Source: Cystobasidiomycetes sp. EMM_F5 (Eukaryota). Taken from it: 20,000 bases of DNA. Under the pieces are notes generated by a model, which worked only from the letters and a program-made list of their open reading frames with translations, was not told the DNA's origin and searched no databases. The translations under genes were made by a program, and so were the position numbers. This document shows, piece by piece, positions 6,480 through 20,000 of the stretch; within the stretch, counting starts at the first letter, position 1; each line of letters begins with the position of its first letter. The DNA lies in assembly GCA_051047955.1 (NCBI GenBank), contig JBPGPT010000027.1, forward strand, positions 183,268 through 203,267, read 5' to 3'.

Positions 6480-9400
6480 ATGCCCACGAGTGACCTGGGT
6501 GAGCGTCAGCATGGATTAGCATGTCAGCCATCAGCCCTAACGAGCTTCCGCATCAGACTATTCGATATTTCTGCTCGACGACTTCGACAGCCGTCAATAT
6601 GCCCAGTCGCTGTTGAATGGGACTGCGATTGCCAGCAGAGCGCAGCCAGACGGCGAAGCTCCAGCTGACAGCATTGATCCACGTTCTATCGAAGCACTAC
6701 AGCAGCTGGGACTATCGCATAGTCTCCCAGCGCGTCCGAGCGGTGCCAACGTCGCGGCGTCATTCGAAAGCAGCGCGAAAGGCAACAATCTTGCAAACGG
6801 CGAGCTGATTGACCGCAGTAAACGAGATGCTTTTGCTTCGACATTCGCTAAAGCTGGATCTGGCGATGTCTCGGCTGCGTTGGCCAAGCTGTCGTCCGCG
6901 TTGGATGGGCTAAACAGGCAACTCAGGTCGGAAATCAACACTCACCATGCCGCACTGCTGATTCAAGCTGGATCAGTGTCCGTACTGCAAGATAATCTTT
7001 CGCAAGTACGGACAGGCTTGAGCCAGGTCGAAGGGAGCGTCGAGCGTTTGCAACGAAAGATTGCAACACCCTACGTCTCGCTTTCGACAAACCTTGAACG
7101 TCTGGCAAAGCTACAAAGCGCGTCCGATCTTGCAAGGAGAGCCAATAGGTTCGTTACTCTGGCTCGCAGGCTCGATGTGCAAATGGCAGAGCTCGACGCA
7201 GCCAACGCAAGACTGCACGATGGTCCAAAGACCCCGTATCCTGCAACGCCAGCTGCAGAAGCTACACCTCGCATGTCTCGTGTGAATTCTCAAGAGAATA
7301 TTGCAGAGAGAAGAAACCATAGCTCGGGCGAGAGAGCTTTGGGCGAGGCGGCATTGACGCTCGCGGAGCTGGGTATGTCAAAGTCTCACGTCGTATCGGC
7401 GGATACCTGATAATCGGAACACCTAGATATGCTGCTGCAAGATAATACAGAAGCGGCAGGCACGGAGACCGCACTAGTGCCATCTATCCGCTCGATACAC
7501 GCATTGCGAGACCATGTGCCAGCAGTCGAAGCGAATCGCGAGCGTGTGATAAACGCAATGGAGATTATGATTCGTCGTGGACTACAAGAACTGGTAAGCG
7601 ACATTATCCTTGATACCGGCTTCATTGCTAAATTGTGCGGAATCCCGGAATGTCCTGCAAAGAATCAGTCTTTGCTGGCGTCATCGCTGCAGACGGCCTA
7701 TAATTTATCAGTCCTTCCGCCGCTTGTTGCATCACTCGTGCAAGATCTTATTGAAGCGATCGAATCGCGCATCAAGAATGCCTTTGACGTAAACGCTCTG
7801 GCGAGAGATGCCGCATTACGCGCTGGTGAACCGTATTTGGGAGCAAGCGCTGCCAGTAGCGTATTCTACAAAAGCCGAGCGAAGACTGAGCCGACGAGCA
7901 GCAATCTGTCGCACTTTCAGGCAGCTTTGTGGAACAGGCTGGAAGGCCTGATAGAGGACATGGCGGGATGTTGCATCAAAGTAAGTCCGCGCCTGTCCTC
8001 GAATAGAATGTCGCTGGAATTTTCTTGCCGCATCAGGTGTATGTGCTGGAAAGGGTCCTCAAGCTCAAAAAGGATCAAACCAAGAATGCAACATTTTTAG
8101 ACGATGCCTTGACTGTAAGGTCTGCTTTAAAGCTGCCTGAGTGTAGCTGACCATCCCCATGTTAGGTCTTGGAGAACAAGCCGACTTTTACGTTCTGGAC
8201 TACACTTTCACAAAGTTTCGAGACGCATTCACGCGAGGCAGCACGATCTTCCAACTTCGTTCAGCAGTCTCTTTCGCTAACCTACCCTCGCCTGCTGCGG
8301 CTGTTTCACGAATTCTTCTCCAAAATTGCTCTGCAGTCCGATACCGTCTACGCACAGACTCAACAATCGCCTGAGACTGTACTTATACTGCGATCCATCT
8401 CGTCTTTCGAAAGTTCGTACATTGTCCGCTCACAAAATAGAATGTTGGAAGCGGTCGGGCAAGCGTTCGCCAATGCGCAGCGGAATCCACCAGGCAGTCA
8501 GGAGGGTATCGCTGTTGCTAGAGTCATCAGTAACGAGCTTGATGCAGCGAGATTCGACCCTCTACTTGTCAAGAGTATAGCAAAGACCGTAGCGAAGGCC
8601 ATCGATAGCTTCGTCGATAGGAGCGAGACTCTGGTGAGTCGATGACCGTTTATATGGATGCTGTTCTAGCCGTGATTTGATTGGGTGGTATTCAGTGTGT
8701 GACAGACTACACGGCCGTATCGCTTGCCGGTCCGCACCCCACAGCAGCGCAGCAGATTAATGCAGATTTGGCTACGGCTCTGTATCATCTGTGGTCGCCT
8801 CTCACTCGAGTTCTAGTGAGCTATCCACAAGAGATCCAAGAAACCCTTCGACTCAAAGTCAAGGTATGTAAGAAAGTGATCGACGATGAATCCCAAGTTA
8901 ATGTTCGCTTTTTCGCCTACGCATCAGTCTATAATCGAGACACTGTCCGAAGTGACTACGCCTTTATTTGCAGCCATCAGGAGAGAAGTTGCAGCAATCA
9001 TTGCTCGCATGCATCGTACAGGTTACAACAAACCCTTGGATCCGACGACGACGAGCGTTTTCATGCAAGATCTCAGCGACAAGCTTGGGTATATCCGAAG
9101 GCAGATACTAGCCCCGCTTAGGATTGGCGAGCTATCCAAAGAATGGTGCGCGATGCTCATTCTGATGAGCGTGGTGACTGATGCTGCTATAACAGGGTCA
9201 TCGAGCTTTGCAAGTTTACGATTCAAAGATTCGTACTACACATGTCTATAGTCCACCCGCTTGGCGAGGGCGGAAAACTCAAGCTCACGACGGATTGTAC
9301 CACACTCGAATTTGCAGTCGCGCAGTTACTCGGCGACTTTAAGCTCAATCTGTCGGTCCTCGGCGACAGTTTCCGCGTCTTGCGCTCCTTCCGCCCGCTT

Positions 9401-13656: not shown

Positions 13657-13884
13657 GGCAATTCCGAAGAGTCACTACATAGGCGCTGGGCCGAAAACCG
13701 CCTATTTCCCCTTCTTTCACACTGTTGCAGACGTGCAAGATGGTCGCACATTGTCCCTCAGGCAGCATCTCAGTTGCATTGAAATTGCATTGGCAAGAGA
13801 GCACGACCTCTAAAATGGCACAACACACTCCGAAGATACCTCTACACCGCTCCGATCAGGCTCGTAGCTCATTGAAGCTACCTT

Positions 13885-16800
13885 CTACGACTTGGACTTG
13901 CGTGTGGTACCCTTGGTAGTAGCGGATTTGGTAGTAATAGACTTTCGCTTCTTGGCTGGCGGCGCAACCGAATCCTCGTCACTTATTCCATCGCCATTGC
14001 TTTCTCTTTTGACGGAGAGCGTTGAGCCTTGCCCGGCATCGCTTGCAGCGTCACCATCTTTCGCATTTGCACGTGAGGCTTTGCCTTTTCTCGCTGGATC
14101 TTTTCGAGCTTCTTCCGGAGCGTGTTCCTTCTGGATGAGGGAAATGAGAGTGATGCACCTCCTTCCAATCTCAATGGGTGTACGAGACTTGATAAACCAG
14201 TTGAATCTGAAATCAGGCCAGTCGAGCACTTCGCGCTTGATCCTGTCGTATACGTCATCGCTGCCCACACCGTGTCTTGCCAGGGCACAGACGATGAAGC
14301 GATCCTCCTCCTCGGAATACGTCTTTGGCCGTTGTTGAACAGGGTACTTGATTGTCAATTGTTGTAGGGGGTGAGGATACGAAGCGACAATATCCTTGAT
14401 AAGCTGCGTTAGGCGAACATTCTTTGCATGTTGCTTCTCGGCTTCGGTGATCTTGCTAACTTGCCGCTCCCAGTCTGGTTGTTGTACGTCAGCAAAGCAA
14501 GTCATGGATCAGTGTGCGACCCGTCCCTACCCTCAATCTCCTTGTAACGCTCCCAGAAGACATCCGAGTAGCGCTTGACATCCTCTACGCTCTTTGCGCA
14601 TTCGGCAGCAATGCCGTTGAGGTCCTCGCGACCGTATCTCTCGCAGCCTCGAATAAATGCCTGGAAGTCACGCTTGTGCCAATCGCCAAAGCCAGTATTC
14701 TGCAGTGATTGCTTCTCCGCTTGCTCTTCTTCGGTAAGCGGTTCAGCTGTAAACAAGATTGACAAGTTAGGCCACGCGAACAAGTAACGATAAGAGAGAC
14801 TGACCATTATCAATATCAGCTTGCTCCTCCACCCGCTCCGCTTCAAGCTCTTCGGCAGTCATAGTTTTGTCTATTCCCAAAGGCACCTGGAAGTCTTGTA
14901 GCTTCTTCTGGTAATTAAGCTCGAGTTCTTGCAGCTCGAGTAGTCGAGGATCGAAGAATTGCCAATCACCCCTATAACCAATACCCTCAGCGATGTCATT
15001 ACACATGCTCAAAAAGTGGAAAACACTCACACTTGACCTTTAAGCTTGAGCTTTGCAGGTCGACGGCGATGCACGACCGACGAATAGTCTACTCCGAAAT
15101 TGGCTTTGCGCTCACGTTTCGATGGTTCGAGGAAGAAGAGGGCCTTCTTGGGTGCCTTTCCAAACGTCTCACCCTCCCATTCCCTCGTTCCGGGCGCATC
15201 AGACTTGAAGTTGTGCAAGTCATCGAAACCGAGACTCGCATATTTTGCATTCAGCTCTGCCGTTTTAGATTCTCCACGTTTGATGACGTCGTCAATAGCA
15301 TCGTCTATATCCATGCTCTCTTTGGCAGTCATGATTCGCTGAGCACCGTGCTGAATCATTTCTACCAGATCGTCTTTGCCTGCAGCTTTGTTGACGTTTG
15401 TGCTGCGGCCTTGCTGGATAACGAGCTGATCGAGTCGCAGCTTCTGTGCGGCTCGTTCCAGCACCTTCTCCTCGACCGCGTCCTCGGTGATGAATCTGAA
15501 AACGTAGACTTGCTTCTTTTGACCGATACGATGTGCGCGATCCATTGCTTGCAGATCGGCCTGCGGATTCCAATCGCTGTCGTACAGTACGACAATATCA
15601 GCAGTAACGAGGTTGATACCGAGTCCACCAGCTCGTGTAGTGAGCAAGAAGATGAATTTCTCAGAGTTTGGCTTATTGTATTCGTCAATTGCGGCAATAC
15701 GATCTTCATGACTGGTTGAGCCGTCAATTCGGCAGTAGCCATACTCGCGCAGGAAGCAGTAATCCTATGGCGGATGAAGAATAAGTAGTCTGTCAATGTC
15801 GACTGAAATGCAGGAGAAAGCCAGCGTACCTCAAGAAGATCGAGAACTCTGCTCATTTGCGAAAAGATGAGCACGCGGGATCCCTTCTCCTTCATCGTTC
15901 TCAGCAGCTTATCAAGGACCTTCATCTTGCCTGCGTTATCGACGAGGTGTTCATCGGTGGTATACGGCGGTCCAGGTTCCGCGCCATCAAAGAGATAAGG
16001 ATGATTGCAGCACTTGCGGAGCTGCATGACGATGTTGAGAAGGCGAGTCTTGCCCTCCTTCTTGCCCACCATCCCGTTAACGGCATCGATGTCCTTCTCC
16101 AGCAGCGATCTGTACCACTTCCTCTGCATCTCCGTCATGCCGACGTAGAGATTGATCTCCTTCTTCGGCAGCAAGCTCTTTTCCACATCAATCTTGACGC
16201 GACGAAGCAGGAAAGGCCGTAAGACTTTATGAAGTTGCTTGACCACACCATCCTGATCTTCCTCCTTACTATCAAGTCCATTGCCTCCTTTGGATGCTTT
16301 TGGCTTCTTGTCTGGGTTCTCTGCCTCTTTATCCGCTTCATCAATCGTCTTTCCGCCAGTCCGCTCACCAAACCAGGCATCGAAATCACCAACATCCGAA
16401 AAGACATCCGGGAGAAGGAAGTTGAGGAGTGCCCATAGTTCGTGTAGGTTGTTTTGCAGCGGGGTACCAGTAATGAGCAGTCTTGCTCTCGATTCAAATA
16501 TGCGTACAATTTGCGAGAGGATCGAATTTACATTCTTGATTCGGTGAGCTTCGTCAATGATAATGTACTCCCACGACAACTTTTTTAGCGTCGACTTTTC
16601 CCGCTGACAGATTTCGTACGAAGTGATGCACACATCGAAATTCTGGGTGAGAATCACCTCCTGACATTGTGCGGCACGTTCCTGCTTGTCGCCGCGGAGT
16701 ATCATTGTGCGGAATCCGGGAACCCAGTGGGCAAATTCACGAGACCAGTTGTCTAGTGTCGACTTGGGAACAATCACAAGATGCGGACCTGGAATATCAC

Positions 16801-18733
16801 GATGAAATTTGAGGTAGCCTAGGAACGAGATGGTCTGTAGTGTCTTTCCGAGTCCCATCTCGTCTGCCAGGATTCCGTTGATGCCGTTGTGGTAGAGCGA
16901 GATCATCCAGTTCAAACCTTGTACCTGATAATCTCGCATTTGACCACCCTTGACGACTGTATGGAGAAATTCAATCCCACGCGGACGAATCAAATAGGCG
17001 GAGACAATCACATCAGCCTATACTGCAGCCGATACTGAGTATTAAAGCAACCCACAGGCTGGCGATTCAGTAAAGACAAAACTATCATCCTCGCCATTCT
17101 GGTTCTCGCTACCATCAGCAAGGAGTTCAGCATCTTCCTGCTTTTCACTCTTTCTGCCTCTATGCAGTGCCGCCTTCTTAGTCGCAGCAGCAGCAGCAGC
17201 ACTACTTGCCGCTTTCTTGTCACGTGCGGCTTCGCTGTCCTCAAGAAGCAATGCGAACTCTGGATCTCGCGATTTTTTGAGATTGATAAAGTGTTGAAAG
17301 AGATCGGTCTGCCCGAGGAGATACGAGAAACGCTTGATGGAATCGGCGGCCTGTCATTCCCAAAGGAGAAATAGCGTGCAAGGAAGAAGAGTTCGGTGGA
17401 CGGAAGCGACGCGAAGACAAGCATGGACGGGTAGACGGTAAGCGGAAATTGTTACGGCAAAATACACAAAAGACCGGGCCGTGCGTCAGTCCAGCTGCTC
17501 CACTCGGACGTGTGAGACAGGCGACTACCCACCTTCTTGTCATTCACACCCCGCCTTGCTGCAGAGAGCTGAGATTTCTGGGCTGCCCGTTTTTCCTGTC
17601 GATGACGCGCCGTGTTCCAAAGTAGTACATAATGACATGAATGGCACATCTTTGATCAGCCTACTCCACTCCTTGCAGGTGTTGTCAAACGTCTCACCTT
17701 TATACGGCGAGAGACAGGGCGTGTGATGCGTTGTATTACAGGTAGTTTCAATGACAAGGATGACGCGTGACGCATCTCCATCAGCCCACACCCACTCCCT
17801 CTTTACATCTCATGTCAAACCACCCCACCTTTTTAGCACTCCTCTTATTCTGATTCTCCAACCTCTCTTTCAGCTTTTCCTTTTGTCTCTCCGTCATCTT
17901 TTTCGGCGTCGTCTTTACTCCGGTACCCCCCTCGTCATCCAACGCAATCTCATCATCGTCGTCATCGTCTGACGAGTTGTCGGAGTTTGATGATGCTAAA
18001 TCCATCTCTAGCTCGTCCCTGTCGTCCTCGTCGGGAAGTGTCGATCTGGATAGTTTGGATGGTCCTGCTGGTTGGGGAGCTACAGAGGGCTGTTGGTGAG
18101 CGGGAGAATATGAGATGGAGAGGGAGGATGGGGGAGAAGCGTGTAAAGAAGGCAAAGAGAGCATGTCGGTGAGTGGGAGAAATAAGAGATGGACAGGGAG
18201 AGCGTGCAAGATGAGGGAGAAGTGAAGAACGGGGATTGCAGAGAGAAAGACGGATGAGAAAGAGAACGGGGGATTTTAGAGAGATAGAAGAAAGCAGGAC
18301 GGAGGATCCAGAGGAAGGGCGGACAAGAGAAAGAACCGATACAAAAGAGAAAGAAAGAACGGAGAAGAGCATTAGAAGACGGAAGAGAAAGGAGAGAGAG
18401 AAAGAAAGAAGGAGAGAAAAAACATTAGCACTCCTCATACCTCACTCCTCAGGACCTTCACTCCTCGGGACCTTCGGCCCCTTGATCGTTACGGCCTTCG
18501 TCGTTAGAACTCACCTGCCTCGACGTCGCCCTGCTATCATCCACGACGATATCACTGAGCGTGTCATAATCCCCATTACTGCTCCCTTGCGCAGATGGCA
18601 CCTGAAGCATGTTTGCAGACTGTCCAATATCTCGACGCGTAGATTGGAGTCAGAGTGGGCGTGTCGATGGTATGAACGAGTGCTCGCAGTCAGTGTGGGT
18701 GTATATACTCTCAAGAGCACCACTCACGCTCAT
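13885..18733 (-). CDS. ISWI: ISWI-family SNF2 chromatin-remodelling ATPase (Isw1/Isw2-like), multi-exon
   Basis: [49 protein letters not shown] region (YSEEEDRF...[11 protein letters not shown]) and N-terminal [13 protein letters not shown]. Proposed exons: 18728..18733, 18515..18601 (or ..18619), 17829..18089, 17533..17595, 17056..17350, 15830..16956, 15031..15764, 14805..14971, 14531..14746, 13885..14474. The 5'-most exons are less certain than the core. Confidence 0.93.
18424..18505 (-). repeat. Intronic GAGGAGTG-repeat element, copy in ISWI intron 18090..18514
   Basis: AACGACGAAGGCCGTAACGATCAAGGGGCCGAAGGTCCCGAGGAGTGAAGGTCCTGAGGAGTGAGGTATGAGGAGTGCTAAT; three GAGGAGTG units; aligns by eye with 19802..19899. 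Confidence 0.8.
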
Positions 18734-18952: not shown

Positions 18953-20000
18953 ATGTCCCGCCTGTCGATGCTCTCTCGCCAACTGAGCACAGCCAGTCCA
19001 TCCCCGACGATGCAGTGGGGGCAGTACTTTACCCTGAGGAGGTCGAGGAGGAGGTGGGCGACGCTGGCAGCTGTCCCGACGTCGGTGGGGGGTGTGGTGT
19101 TGGGAGGAGGTGAGTGAAGCGAAGGGCCGTAGGTCCTGAGCAGTGGAGTAATGGCATTCGAGTATTCTACGAGGGCGCAGTCCGAGTACTGTAGCTTGTT
19201 TGATATTCTTTGTGTTTATGCACCGTCCTCCGTGGACTGAGCGTAGTCATTTATGCTGACGGTGGATTACTCTGTGTGTGTTGGTGTTTGTATTCTGTAT
19301 TATGTATTCTTCTATCCTTCTCCTCCTCTATTCATTCTCTCTTCCTTCTTTCCCTTCTTTCCCTCCTTTATCCTCTTCCCTTCCCTACTTTCTCTCTTAC
19401 TCTTACCTTCTCTTCTTCTCTCTCCATCTCTTCCATCTCTCCCCACCTCTCCCTCATTACACCTCCCTCCCATCTTCAGGCTACTTTGCCAACCTCGAGA
19501 CATCCCCCGGCTCGCTCATTGCAGGATTTGACCCTCTGATAGTGTGTGAGTATGTTTTACTCAATCTACATACTCACCACTGACTGTTTCACAACAGACG
19601 GCGCAGCAATGGTAGCGTGCGTCGCAGGGGGGTGGTTGAGTGGGCCGATACTGGGGAATGCAGTGTGGAGGGCGACGCATAGGAGCGTGAGGAAGGAGAT
19701 GGAGAGGATGGATGCAGTCTTTTTGAGGCATATTAGAGAGAGGAGGGTCGATCCGAGTAGGCAGAGTGTGAATAACCCAGTGCCGGATTATTGTGAGCAG
19801 CACGACGAGGAGCCGTAACGACGAAGGGCCAAACGACCGAAGGGCCGGAGGCCCTGAGGAGTGACGGTACTGAGGAGTGGAGGGCCGAGGAGTGCTTACT
19901 TTGTTGTGTCTTTTTTCTTCTCCTCTTCTTCTTCTCTTCTTCTTCTCTTCTCTTCTCTTCTCTTCTCTTCTCTTCTCTTCTCTTCTCTTCTCTTCTCTTC
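18953..20000 (+). CDS. PAM17: Mitochondrial presequence translocase-associated motor subunit Pam17; 3' end outside the window
   Basis: Exons 18953..19109, 19480..19545 and 19598..19792 give MSRLSMLSRQLST...WGQYFTLRRSRRR...GFDPLIVYG...GWLSGPILGNAVW...FLRHIRERRVDPSRQSVNNPVPDY. The intron starting at 19793 runs off the window. Confidence 0.9.
19121..19146 (+). repeat. Partial, degenerate copy of the intronic element in PAM17 intron 1
   Basis: GAAGGGCCGTAGGTCCTGAGCAGTGG, starting 11 nt after the first base of the GTGAGT donor; resembles the AAGGG(G)CCGRAGGYCCYGAGGAGTG core of the other two copies. Confidence 0.6.
19802..19899 (+). repeat. Intronic GAGGAGTG-repeat element, copy in PAM17 intron 3
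   Basis: ACGACGAGGAGCCGTAACGACGAAGGGCCAAACGACCGAAGGGCCGGAGGCCCTGAGGAGTGACGGTACTGAGGAGTGGAGGGCCGAGGAGTGCTTAC; three GAGGAGTG units ending in a branch-site-like TGCTTAC. Confidence 0.8.
19941..20000 (+). repeat. (TCTTC)n microsatellite within PAM17 intron 3
   Basis: 12 perfect TCTTC units up to the window end, preceded by degenerate CT-rich sequence from ~19909. Confidence 0.97.

Follow-up and report, generated by a model that had tools for sequence, protein, structure and literature searches.

A tandemly duplicated intron with a candidate recursive splice site in a basidiomycete ISWI-type gene

Recursive splicing at zero-length exons is established in animals, where it is known from long Drosophila and vertebrate introns, and the zero-length exons of very long animal introns are well studied. 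The animal sites consist of a pyrimidine tract plus CAG. The origin of zero-length exons is rarely clear. It can be read from the DNA at the locus described here, where a doubled intron has turned its border sequence into an inner junction. The locus lies in a stretch of 20,000 nucleotides (nt) from Cystobasidiomycetes sp. EMM_F5 (contig JBPGPT010000027.1, positions 183,268 to 203,267, of GenBank assembly GCA_051047955.1), referred to below as the window; all positions are counted within it. A gene for an ISWI-type chromatin-remodelling ATPase runs along the minus strand of the window from about 18160 down to 13885, and its first intron, of 233 nt, holds two complete sets of splicing signals. 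These belong to an upstream unit A and a downstream unit B, which abut at AAG/GTGAGA. As in recursive sites, the intron contains a 3′ splice site immediately followed by a 5′ splice site, and removal of the first unit would regenerate a donor (AAG + GTGAGA). Unlike those of animals, the inner acceptor is AAG. Units A and B are diverged head-to-tail tandem copies of an intron-sized piece with a donor and a branch motif, left by an old duplication in a housekeeping gene. We regard it as possible, if just short of probable, that AAG/GTGAGA is an active recursive splice site created by tandem duplication within this 233-nt basidiomycete intron.

In fungi, spliceosome profiling has identified zero-length exons in two introns of Schizosaccharomyces pombe, one of them the 336-nt intron of SPNCRNA.445 (bioRxiv 10.1101/226894). 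These two fission yeast cases are the fungal examples that we found in the portions of the literature available to us, and we do not claim that such exons are unreported in basidiomycetes. With its total of 233 nt, the present intron is on a scale similar to that of the S. pombe case. It differs from the reported sites in that it is a candidate read from the sequence, and in that its two halves are paralogs, a property that the available parts of those reports do not describe.

The generation of introns and splice sites by tandem genomic duplication is itself described, in the segmental duplication or AGGT model (PMC3265369, PMC4974935). Our locus resembles that model: in both, a gene acquires a copied AG/GT through head-to-tail duplication, and the original mRNA is recovered when splicing spans the copies. 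In the model, exon sequence is doubled and an intron is born; here, an existing intron was doubled, became longer and gained an inner junction. The junction in the mRNA would be AAG/GAA and not AG/GT, so that intron 1 itself was not born in the manner of the model.

The third related system is the stwintron, a type of spliceosomal twin intron known from filamentous fungi (PMC6616335; PMC8469720, PMC9024468). Like a stwintron, intron 1 is a complex fungal intervening sequence made of two U2 introns that could be removed in consecutive reactions. In stwintrons, however, the inner intron interrupts the donor, the branch or the acceptor of the outer one and two steps are obligatory, whereas the units here abut and a one-step route is possible. 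The donor of A, both GGCTGAT motifs and the acceptor of B are all intact and uninterrupted, and identity with a stwintron was rejected. Since no signal of either unit is interrupted, the locus belongs to the abutting kind, and abutting U2 introns excised by recursive splicing are separated from stwintrons in the stwintron literature (PMC6616335).

Two intron copies and their common boundary

The locus came to attention through a sequence-only reading, made by a model, of the 233-nt, phase-0 gap at 17828..17596. That reading described two full signal sets meeting at 17698/17697, gave the lengths, donors, GCTGAT sites and ends of the two units (TATAAAG and CGACAG), and stated that, apart from a GAG 5 nt past the branch point of A, the first AG is the one adjoining the second donor. 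All of these features are present. Each unit contains a single CTRAY, in both cases CTGAT within the heptamer GGCTGAT. In unit A it occupies nt 45-49 (17784..17780; branch adenosine at 17781, heptamer at 17786..17780), and in unit B nt 39-43 (branch adenosine at 17656, heptamer at 17661..17655). The GAG of unit A (17778..17776) ends 5 nt past the branch adenosine and is followed by 76 nt free of AG up to the closing AG; the tail includes a pyrimidine-rich stretch, CCCTGTCTCTCGCCGT, ahead of the AAG. In unit B the final inner AG stands at nt 47-48 and a 52-nt AG-free tail follows.

The two units are alike beyond what common splice signals would account for. Their local alignment score of 43 was reached by none of 1000 dinucleotide-preserving shuffles (mean 17.7, standard deviation 2.9, maximum 31), and their global score was 63 against 26.2 ± 5.5 in 500 shuffles. 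Shuffles do not control for the splice signals that introns have in common, and we therefore aligned all eight intron units of the gene pairwise, these being units A and B, as the halves of intron 1, together with introns 2 to 7. The other 27 pairs scored between 10 and 24. The A-B alignment spans nt 9-105 of A and nt 8-95 of B, with 63 of its 85 ungapped columns identical (74%), which corresponds to a Jukes-Cantor distance of about 0.32 plus several indels. The likeness also covers blocks that are not splice signals, namely GTTTGACA, GGAGTGG, AGATG, TGTCATT and ACTAC.

The AGGT at the junction is the only one among the seven ISWI introns, the other six having none. When the donor and acceptor of intron 1 were fixed and its interior was shuffled 20000 times with dinucleotides preserved, an AG/GTRNG of some kind appeared in 2686 shuffles, and two complete units by the same rules in 9. 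The scarcity of two complete units among the shuffles, together with the absence of AGGT from the other six introns, indicates that the pattern is not a product of chance.

The double signal set is accounted for by the tandem duplication, and neither an evolved device nor a lost micro-exon is needed. As the alignment shows, an ancestral intron of roughly 100-130 nt was duplicated head to tail to give one intervening sequence of 233 nt, each copy retaining its donor, a GGCTGAT about 40 nt in and an AG-free tail. Both borders of the intron carry AG/G, so that a copy boundary placed there yields AG/GT, as is seen at the internal junction. Such a boundary would have set an acceptor-like AAG against the second donor and thereby formed a zero-length exon.

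A further short similarity extends beyond the two copies. GAGTGG recurs in unit A, unit B and intron 2 (17789-17799, 17664-17674 and 17486-17506, minus strand), each time 10-17 nt upstream of the branch motif, and unit B and intron 2 have GAGTGGAG around it in common. This recurrence may be due to chance or may reflect a local splicing motif. Overall likeness between intron 1 and intron 2 was not significant (102 of 500 shuffles as good).

Related DNA

Scanning metagenome contigs with exon 3 gave seven loci. One of them (L007), a poor match, was left out, and three (L003, L004 and L005) are one sequence, which leaves four usable lineages (L001, L002, L003-5 and L006). In all four, the position of intron 1 is free of introns, single or paired, and of micro-exons. 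L002 reads without interruption through the positions of both intron 1 and intron 2. L001 and L003-5 read through the intron 1 position and have one intron 12 codons before ..DSIKRF. The closest lineage, L006 (84% in its best segment), reads ...HKANAEKRKAQAGQFAERRSKMGAQK uninterrupted across the intron 1 position and carries, precisely where intron 2 lies, an intron of about 53 nt, compared with the 182 nt of intron 2 in the window; these L006 readings rest on frame 2 by eye, tblastn having given no match upstream of exon 3. The sequence-only reading had suggested that the two units might be the relic of a lost micro-exon, and had named a micro-exon or two neighbouring introns in the ISWI genes of close relatives as what to look for. 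Neither occurs in the four lineages, and the units are tandem copies, so that this suggestion is not borne out.

A second source of related sequence was run X1, the single run listed by one search for sequencing runs with the locus, which gave none on record as RNA (share of sampled words 0.04; its kind is a guess, and it may be DNA). The run was placed on 13800-18300 at 80% likeness. This gave 12 records and no joints. One contig of 196 nt is colinear with 17547-17742, across the acceptor of B and the A/B junction, with 8 differences (96% alike), so that a near relative with the same A/B junction exists in another sample. The other listed contigs of the run are less than 90% alike and lie on conserved helicase exons. 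Seven differences of the 196-nt contig are listed and all fall in unit B, while the covered 49 nt of exon 2 contain none and the covered 45 nt of the tail of A no more than one; they are too few to argue for constraint. Unlike a site conserved across genera, the inner junction is seen only in the source organism and in this contig, and the four more distant lineages lack the intron altogether.

Removal of the doubled intron

That the intron was duplicated and that its 233 nt are removed completely is, taken together, highly probable. How they would be removed may be judged from the layout of introns in this gene. Units A and B and introns 2 and 3 are built alike: one CTRAY lies 39-45 nt from the donor, 3-6 AGs occur up to a few nt past it, and then come 76, 52, 142 and 59 nt free of AG, respectively. 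This common layout of the first introns suggests that the organism uses donor-proximal branch sites and chooses the first AG downstream. Since units A and B share the layout of their neighbours, removal in two steps is mechanistically open.

Three routes can be envisaged, and all would give the same mRNA. In the first, a lariat formed at the branch of A would resolve at the AAG ending at 17698, and unit B would then leave as an ordinary intron; judged from its sequence, the product of the first step, the AAG of exon 1 followed by GTGAGA, would be a regenerated donor. In the second, unit B would be removed first, and the same AAG would serve as the acceptor of A against exon 2. In the third, donor A would pair directly with the branch of B. 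The reading that we adopt combines duplication and full removal with use of the internal junction by a substantial fraction of transcripts (at least a fifth); for this statement as a whole, we put the odds at slightly less than even.

Several sequence features favour such use. The branch heptamer of A is identical to those of B and intron 3, it stands at the usual distance from its own donor (39-45 nt) and it is transcribed first. Measured against the usual consensus, donor B (GTGAGA) fits no worse than donor A (GTGGGG). Where introns are recognized by intron definition, fungi join the splice sites that lie nearest each other (PMC6616335). The AAG of unit A follows a pyrimidine-rich stretch, homology supports an AAG acceptor at another place in the window (7662), and two complete units were rare among the shuffles (9 of 20000).

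A number of observations weigh in the opposite direction. The acceptor of unit A is AAG, the only one that is not YAG among the eight units, and it is located 83 nt from the branch of A. In a neutral simulation based on the observed divergence, d, the AG-free tail was retained in 26% of cases at d/2, 49% at d/4 and 9% at d, and the tail of A, which is the strongest sequence argument for use of the junction, is therefore explained about as well by neutral inheritance. We found no fold that would bring the branch of A and the AAG together beyond chance (z-scores of 0.39 for the whole intron, -0.61 for A and 0.36 for one of two tails; the other tail gave -0.40 and unit B 1.33). The 196-nt X1 contig shows no joint, and the run may be DNA; it is uninformative on expression or splicing. 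As to the duplication itself, a single-copy state of intron 1 was not present in any of the four metagenome lineages, all of which lack the intron. The terminal stretch of A, moreover, about 38 nt long, does not significantly resemble exon 2, intron 2 or the final part of exon 1 (445, 281 and 229 of 500 shuffles as good, respectively), and because it matches none of these neighbours the exact copy boundary is not fixed.

Some more specific ideas were also set aside. The similarity was not significant either for TATAAAG as a copy of the TAAAAAG of exon 1 or for a derivation of the tail of A from exon 2. An 8-base-pair stem in B (GAUGUGCC/GGCGCGUC), with a possible 6-base-pair counterpart in A (GAUGCG/CGCAUC), might be thought to shorten the distance between branch and acceptor; with two sequences and ordinary energies, we make no such claim.

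The explanation that competes most closely with an active inner junction accepts the same duplication and regards the inner signals as silent relics, donor A pairing with the branch of B and the whole 233 nt leaving as one lariat. We take this to be a serious possibility that falls some way short of probable. The exceptional and distant AAG and the neutral account of the AG-free tail (at 26%) speak for it; the organism copes with a long intron in the same gene, intron 2, and the 233-nt intron has all its signals uninterrupted, which leaves nothing to force two steps. It has to contend with the intact and early transcribed branch of A, with the quality of donor B and with the pairing of nearest sites under intron definition. 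The outcome bears on what the locus can teach. Were the junction active, it would be an example of the origin of a zero-length exon caught in the act, in which a fungus that branches near the donor and takes the first AG removes a doubled intron as two short introns, in either order. It would also offer a small natural test of intron definition (the pairing of the nearest donor and branch) and of the first-AG rule with distant branch sites, and would show how introns grow without harm to the message. Were it unused, the locus would be merely a lengthened intron with a relic.

A second alternative concerns what lies between the two units. After its GAG, unit A offers no AG until the junction, and an inner exon would therefore be either the 78-nt segment that follows the GAG or of zero length. 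The sequence-only reading had offered as its alternative a 53-nt intron ending in GAG and, after it, an exon at 17775..17698 (MRHASSL...RRIK); the GAG ends at 17776, and unit B would come after the exon. The segment is stop-free and in frame as that reading stated, which by our own estimate, (61/64)^26, has a chance of about 0.29. Its status as an exon, constitutive or confined to an isoform, is rejected on homology and we consider it very improbable. The N-terminal parts of 93 orthologs were aligned together with two versions of the protein encoded in the window, one skipping the segment and one with the 26-residue insert. Every one of the 93 is empty throughout the 26 insert columns, and the distance from the insert site to the KRF motif is exactly 27 residues in all 93, as in the skip model; the Mixia sequence across the site is RRVEKAKKAAQNSQLASRKTGNAAKKAADTIKRF. 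The GAG, furthermore, ends 5 nt past the sole branch motif of unit A, whereas the shortest AG-free tail in the gene is 12 nt (intron 5). GAG is the poorest of acceptors. Homology thus points to the whole 233 nt being intronic, with 17829 probably joined to 17595 in the mature mRNA, and in annotation the in-frame stretch should not be called an exon.

It is more improbable still that no duplication took place and that two separate introns came to abut after the loss of a micro-exon, their likeness being that of splice signals alone. Signals of the same kinds at similar offsets do raise the A-B alignment scores somewhat, and introns 2 and 3 share the layout. No other pair of intron units with these signals, however, scores above 24 against the 43 of A and B, and the likeness runs through the non-signal blocks listed above (GTTTGACA, GGAGTGG, TGTCATT and ACTAC among them). 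No intron or micro-exon occurs at the site in any of the four related lineages, and no ortholog has extra residues there.

That the units are copies of a mobile introner-like element, or host a small RNA such as a small nucleolar RNA, is likewise extremely unlikely, for all that there are two similar intron-sized units and that a 196-nt X1 contig is confined to this very region. When the window was searched by blastn-short with A, B, intron 2 and intron 3 as queries, it yielded no further copy, only self matches and chance matches of 10-15 nt (the best non-self matches were 13 nt at E 0.079, with an A-B probe that had been extended, and 12 nt at E 0.09, with one unit alone). A permissive Rfam scan of 17200-18100 gave six matches, all with E of at least 1.1 and far below the gathering scores, so that none had E below 1 or a score near threshold. 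Fold energies were ordinary, and inspection by eye revealed no C/D or H/ACA box pair.

Gene model and other features of the window

The features of the ISWI-type gene on which the above analysis rests are collected in Table 1, together with one intron of another gene. The 372-residue helicase exon is 73-78% identical to basidiomycete ISWI proteins (78% for Mixia osmundae and about 76% for Rhodotorula, Leucosporidium and Cryptococcus). The junctions downstream of the exon 3 acceptor are fixed by ortholog matches.

Table 1. Positions of the features discussed, as numbered in the window
Feature	Positions	Strand	Description	Basis
Coding exon 1, 3′ part	17829..18077	minus	N-terminal, ...NQNKRSAKK	translation; aligns to acidic and basic N-terminal tails of orthologs
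End of exon 1	ends 17829	minus	...AGTGCTAAAAAG; last codon AAG 17831..17829	sequence reading
Intron 1	17828..17596	minus	233 nt, phase 0	sequence reading, script-checked coordinates
Unit A, upstream copy	17828..17698	minus	131 nt; donor GTGGGG 17828..17823; ends TATAAAG (AAG = 17700..17698)	
Candidate 78-nt in-frame exon, judged intronic	17775..17698	minus	MRHASSL...RRIK, 26 residues; stop-free	
Internal junction, candidate zero-length exon and boundary between copies	17700..17692 (17698/17697)	minus	AAG/GTGAGA	
Unit B, downstream copy	17697..17596	minus	102 nt; donor GTGAGA 17697..17692; ends CGACAG; acceptor CAG 17598..17596	
Exon 2	17595..17533	minus	63 nt (21 residues)	translation; column-for-column ortholog alignment, e.g. 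Mixia KAKKAAQNSQLASRKTGNAAKK
Intron 2	17532..17351	minus	182 nt; donor GTGGGT; CTGAC once, at nt 44-48; ACAG acceptor	
Exon 3	starts 17350	minus		acceptor fixed by ortholog matches
Intron 3	17055..16957	minus	99 nt; GTGGGT donor; GGCTGAT at nt 38-44; 59-nt AG-free tail; control for common layout	
Intron 4	15829..15765	minus	65 nt	
Intron 5	15030..14972	minus	59 nt	
Intron 6	14804..14747	minus	58 nt	
Intron 7	14530..14475	minus	56 nt	
Intron in COG5-like gene	7594..7662	plus	69 nt; in frame, stop-free; GTAAGC donor, AAG acceptor	ortholog gap

The sequence-only reading had also predicted AAG acceptors at three other places in the window, at 7662, 2102 and about 1683, and these fared differently. 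Use of an AAG acceptor at 7662 is supported by homology: in 85 of the 89 COG5 orthologs whose match spans the site there is a gap of exactly 23 residues, equal to 7594..7662. The remaining four include three gene calls from close relatives (P0213, P0215 and P0217), in which the gene's own intron at this site seems to have been read as coding sequence.

The other two positions lie in a gene resembling MFS transporters, on the minus strand. An acceptor at 2102, in a stretch (2102-2260) with a provisional exon model, fits the frame and the starts of the ortholog matches and is compatible with the data without being proven; it stands as a candidate. The AAG at about 1683 did not hold up. It falls within HVMKGVGALLSPL; in the 7 MFS relatives, of 11 listed, whose match reaches the site, this segment corresponds to a conserved H..YG.GA..PL block, and the position of the AAG inside it puts the true acceptor upstream of 1693.

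The taxonomic signal of the window is mixed. The ISWI protein is nearest to those of Pucciniomycotina and Tremellomycetes (73-78%), and the best named matches of the COG5 protein are from Agaricomycetes (about 56%); COG5 proteins of other assemblies reach 82-85% identity. The picture resembles that of a basidiomycete for which the protein collection contains no near named relative. At the end of the window, from about 19800 to 20000, there is a simple purine/pyrimidine repeat, which reads REEKRREEKRREEK... in minus-strand frames.

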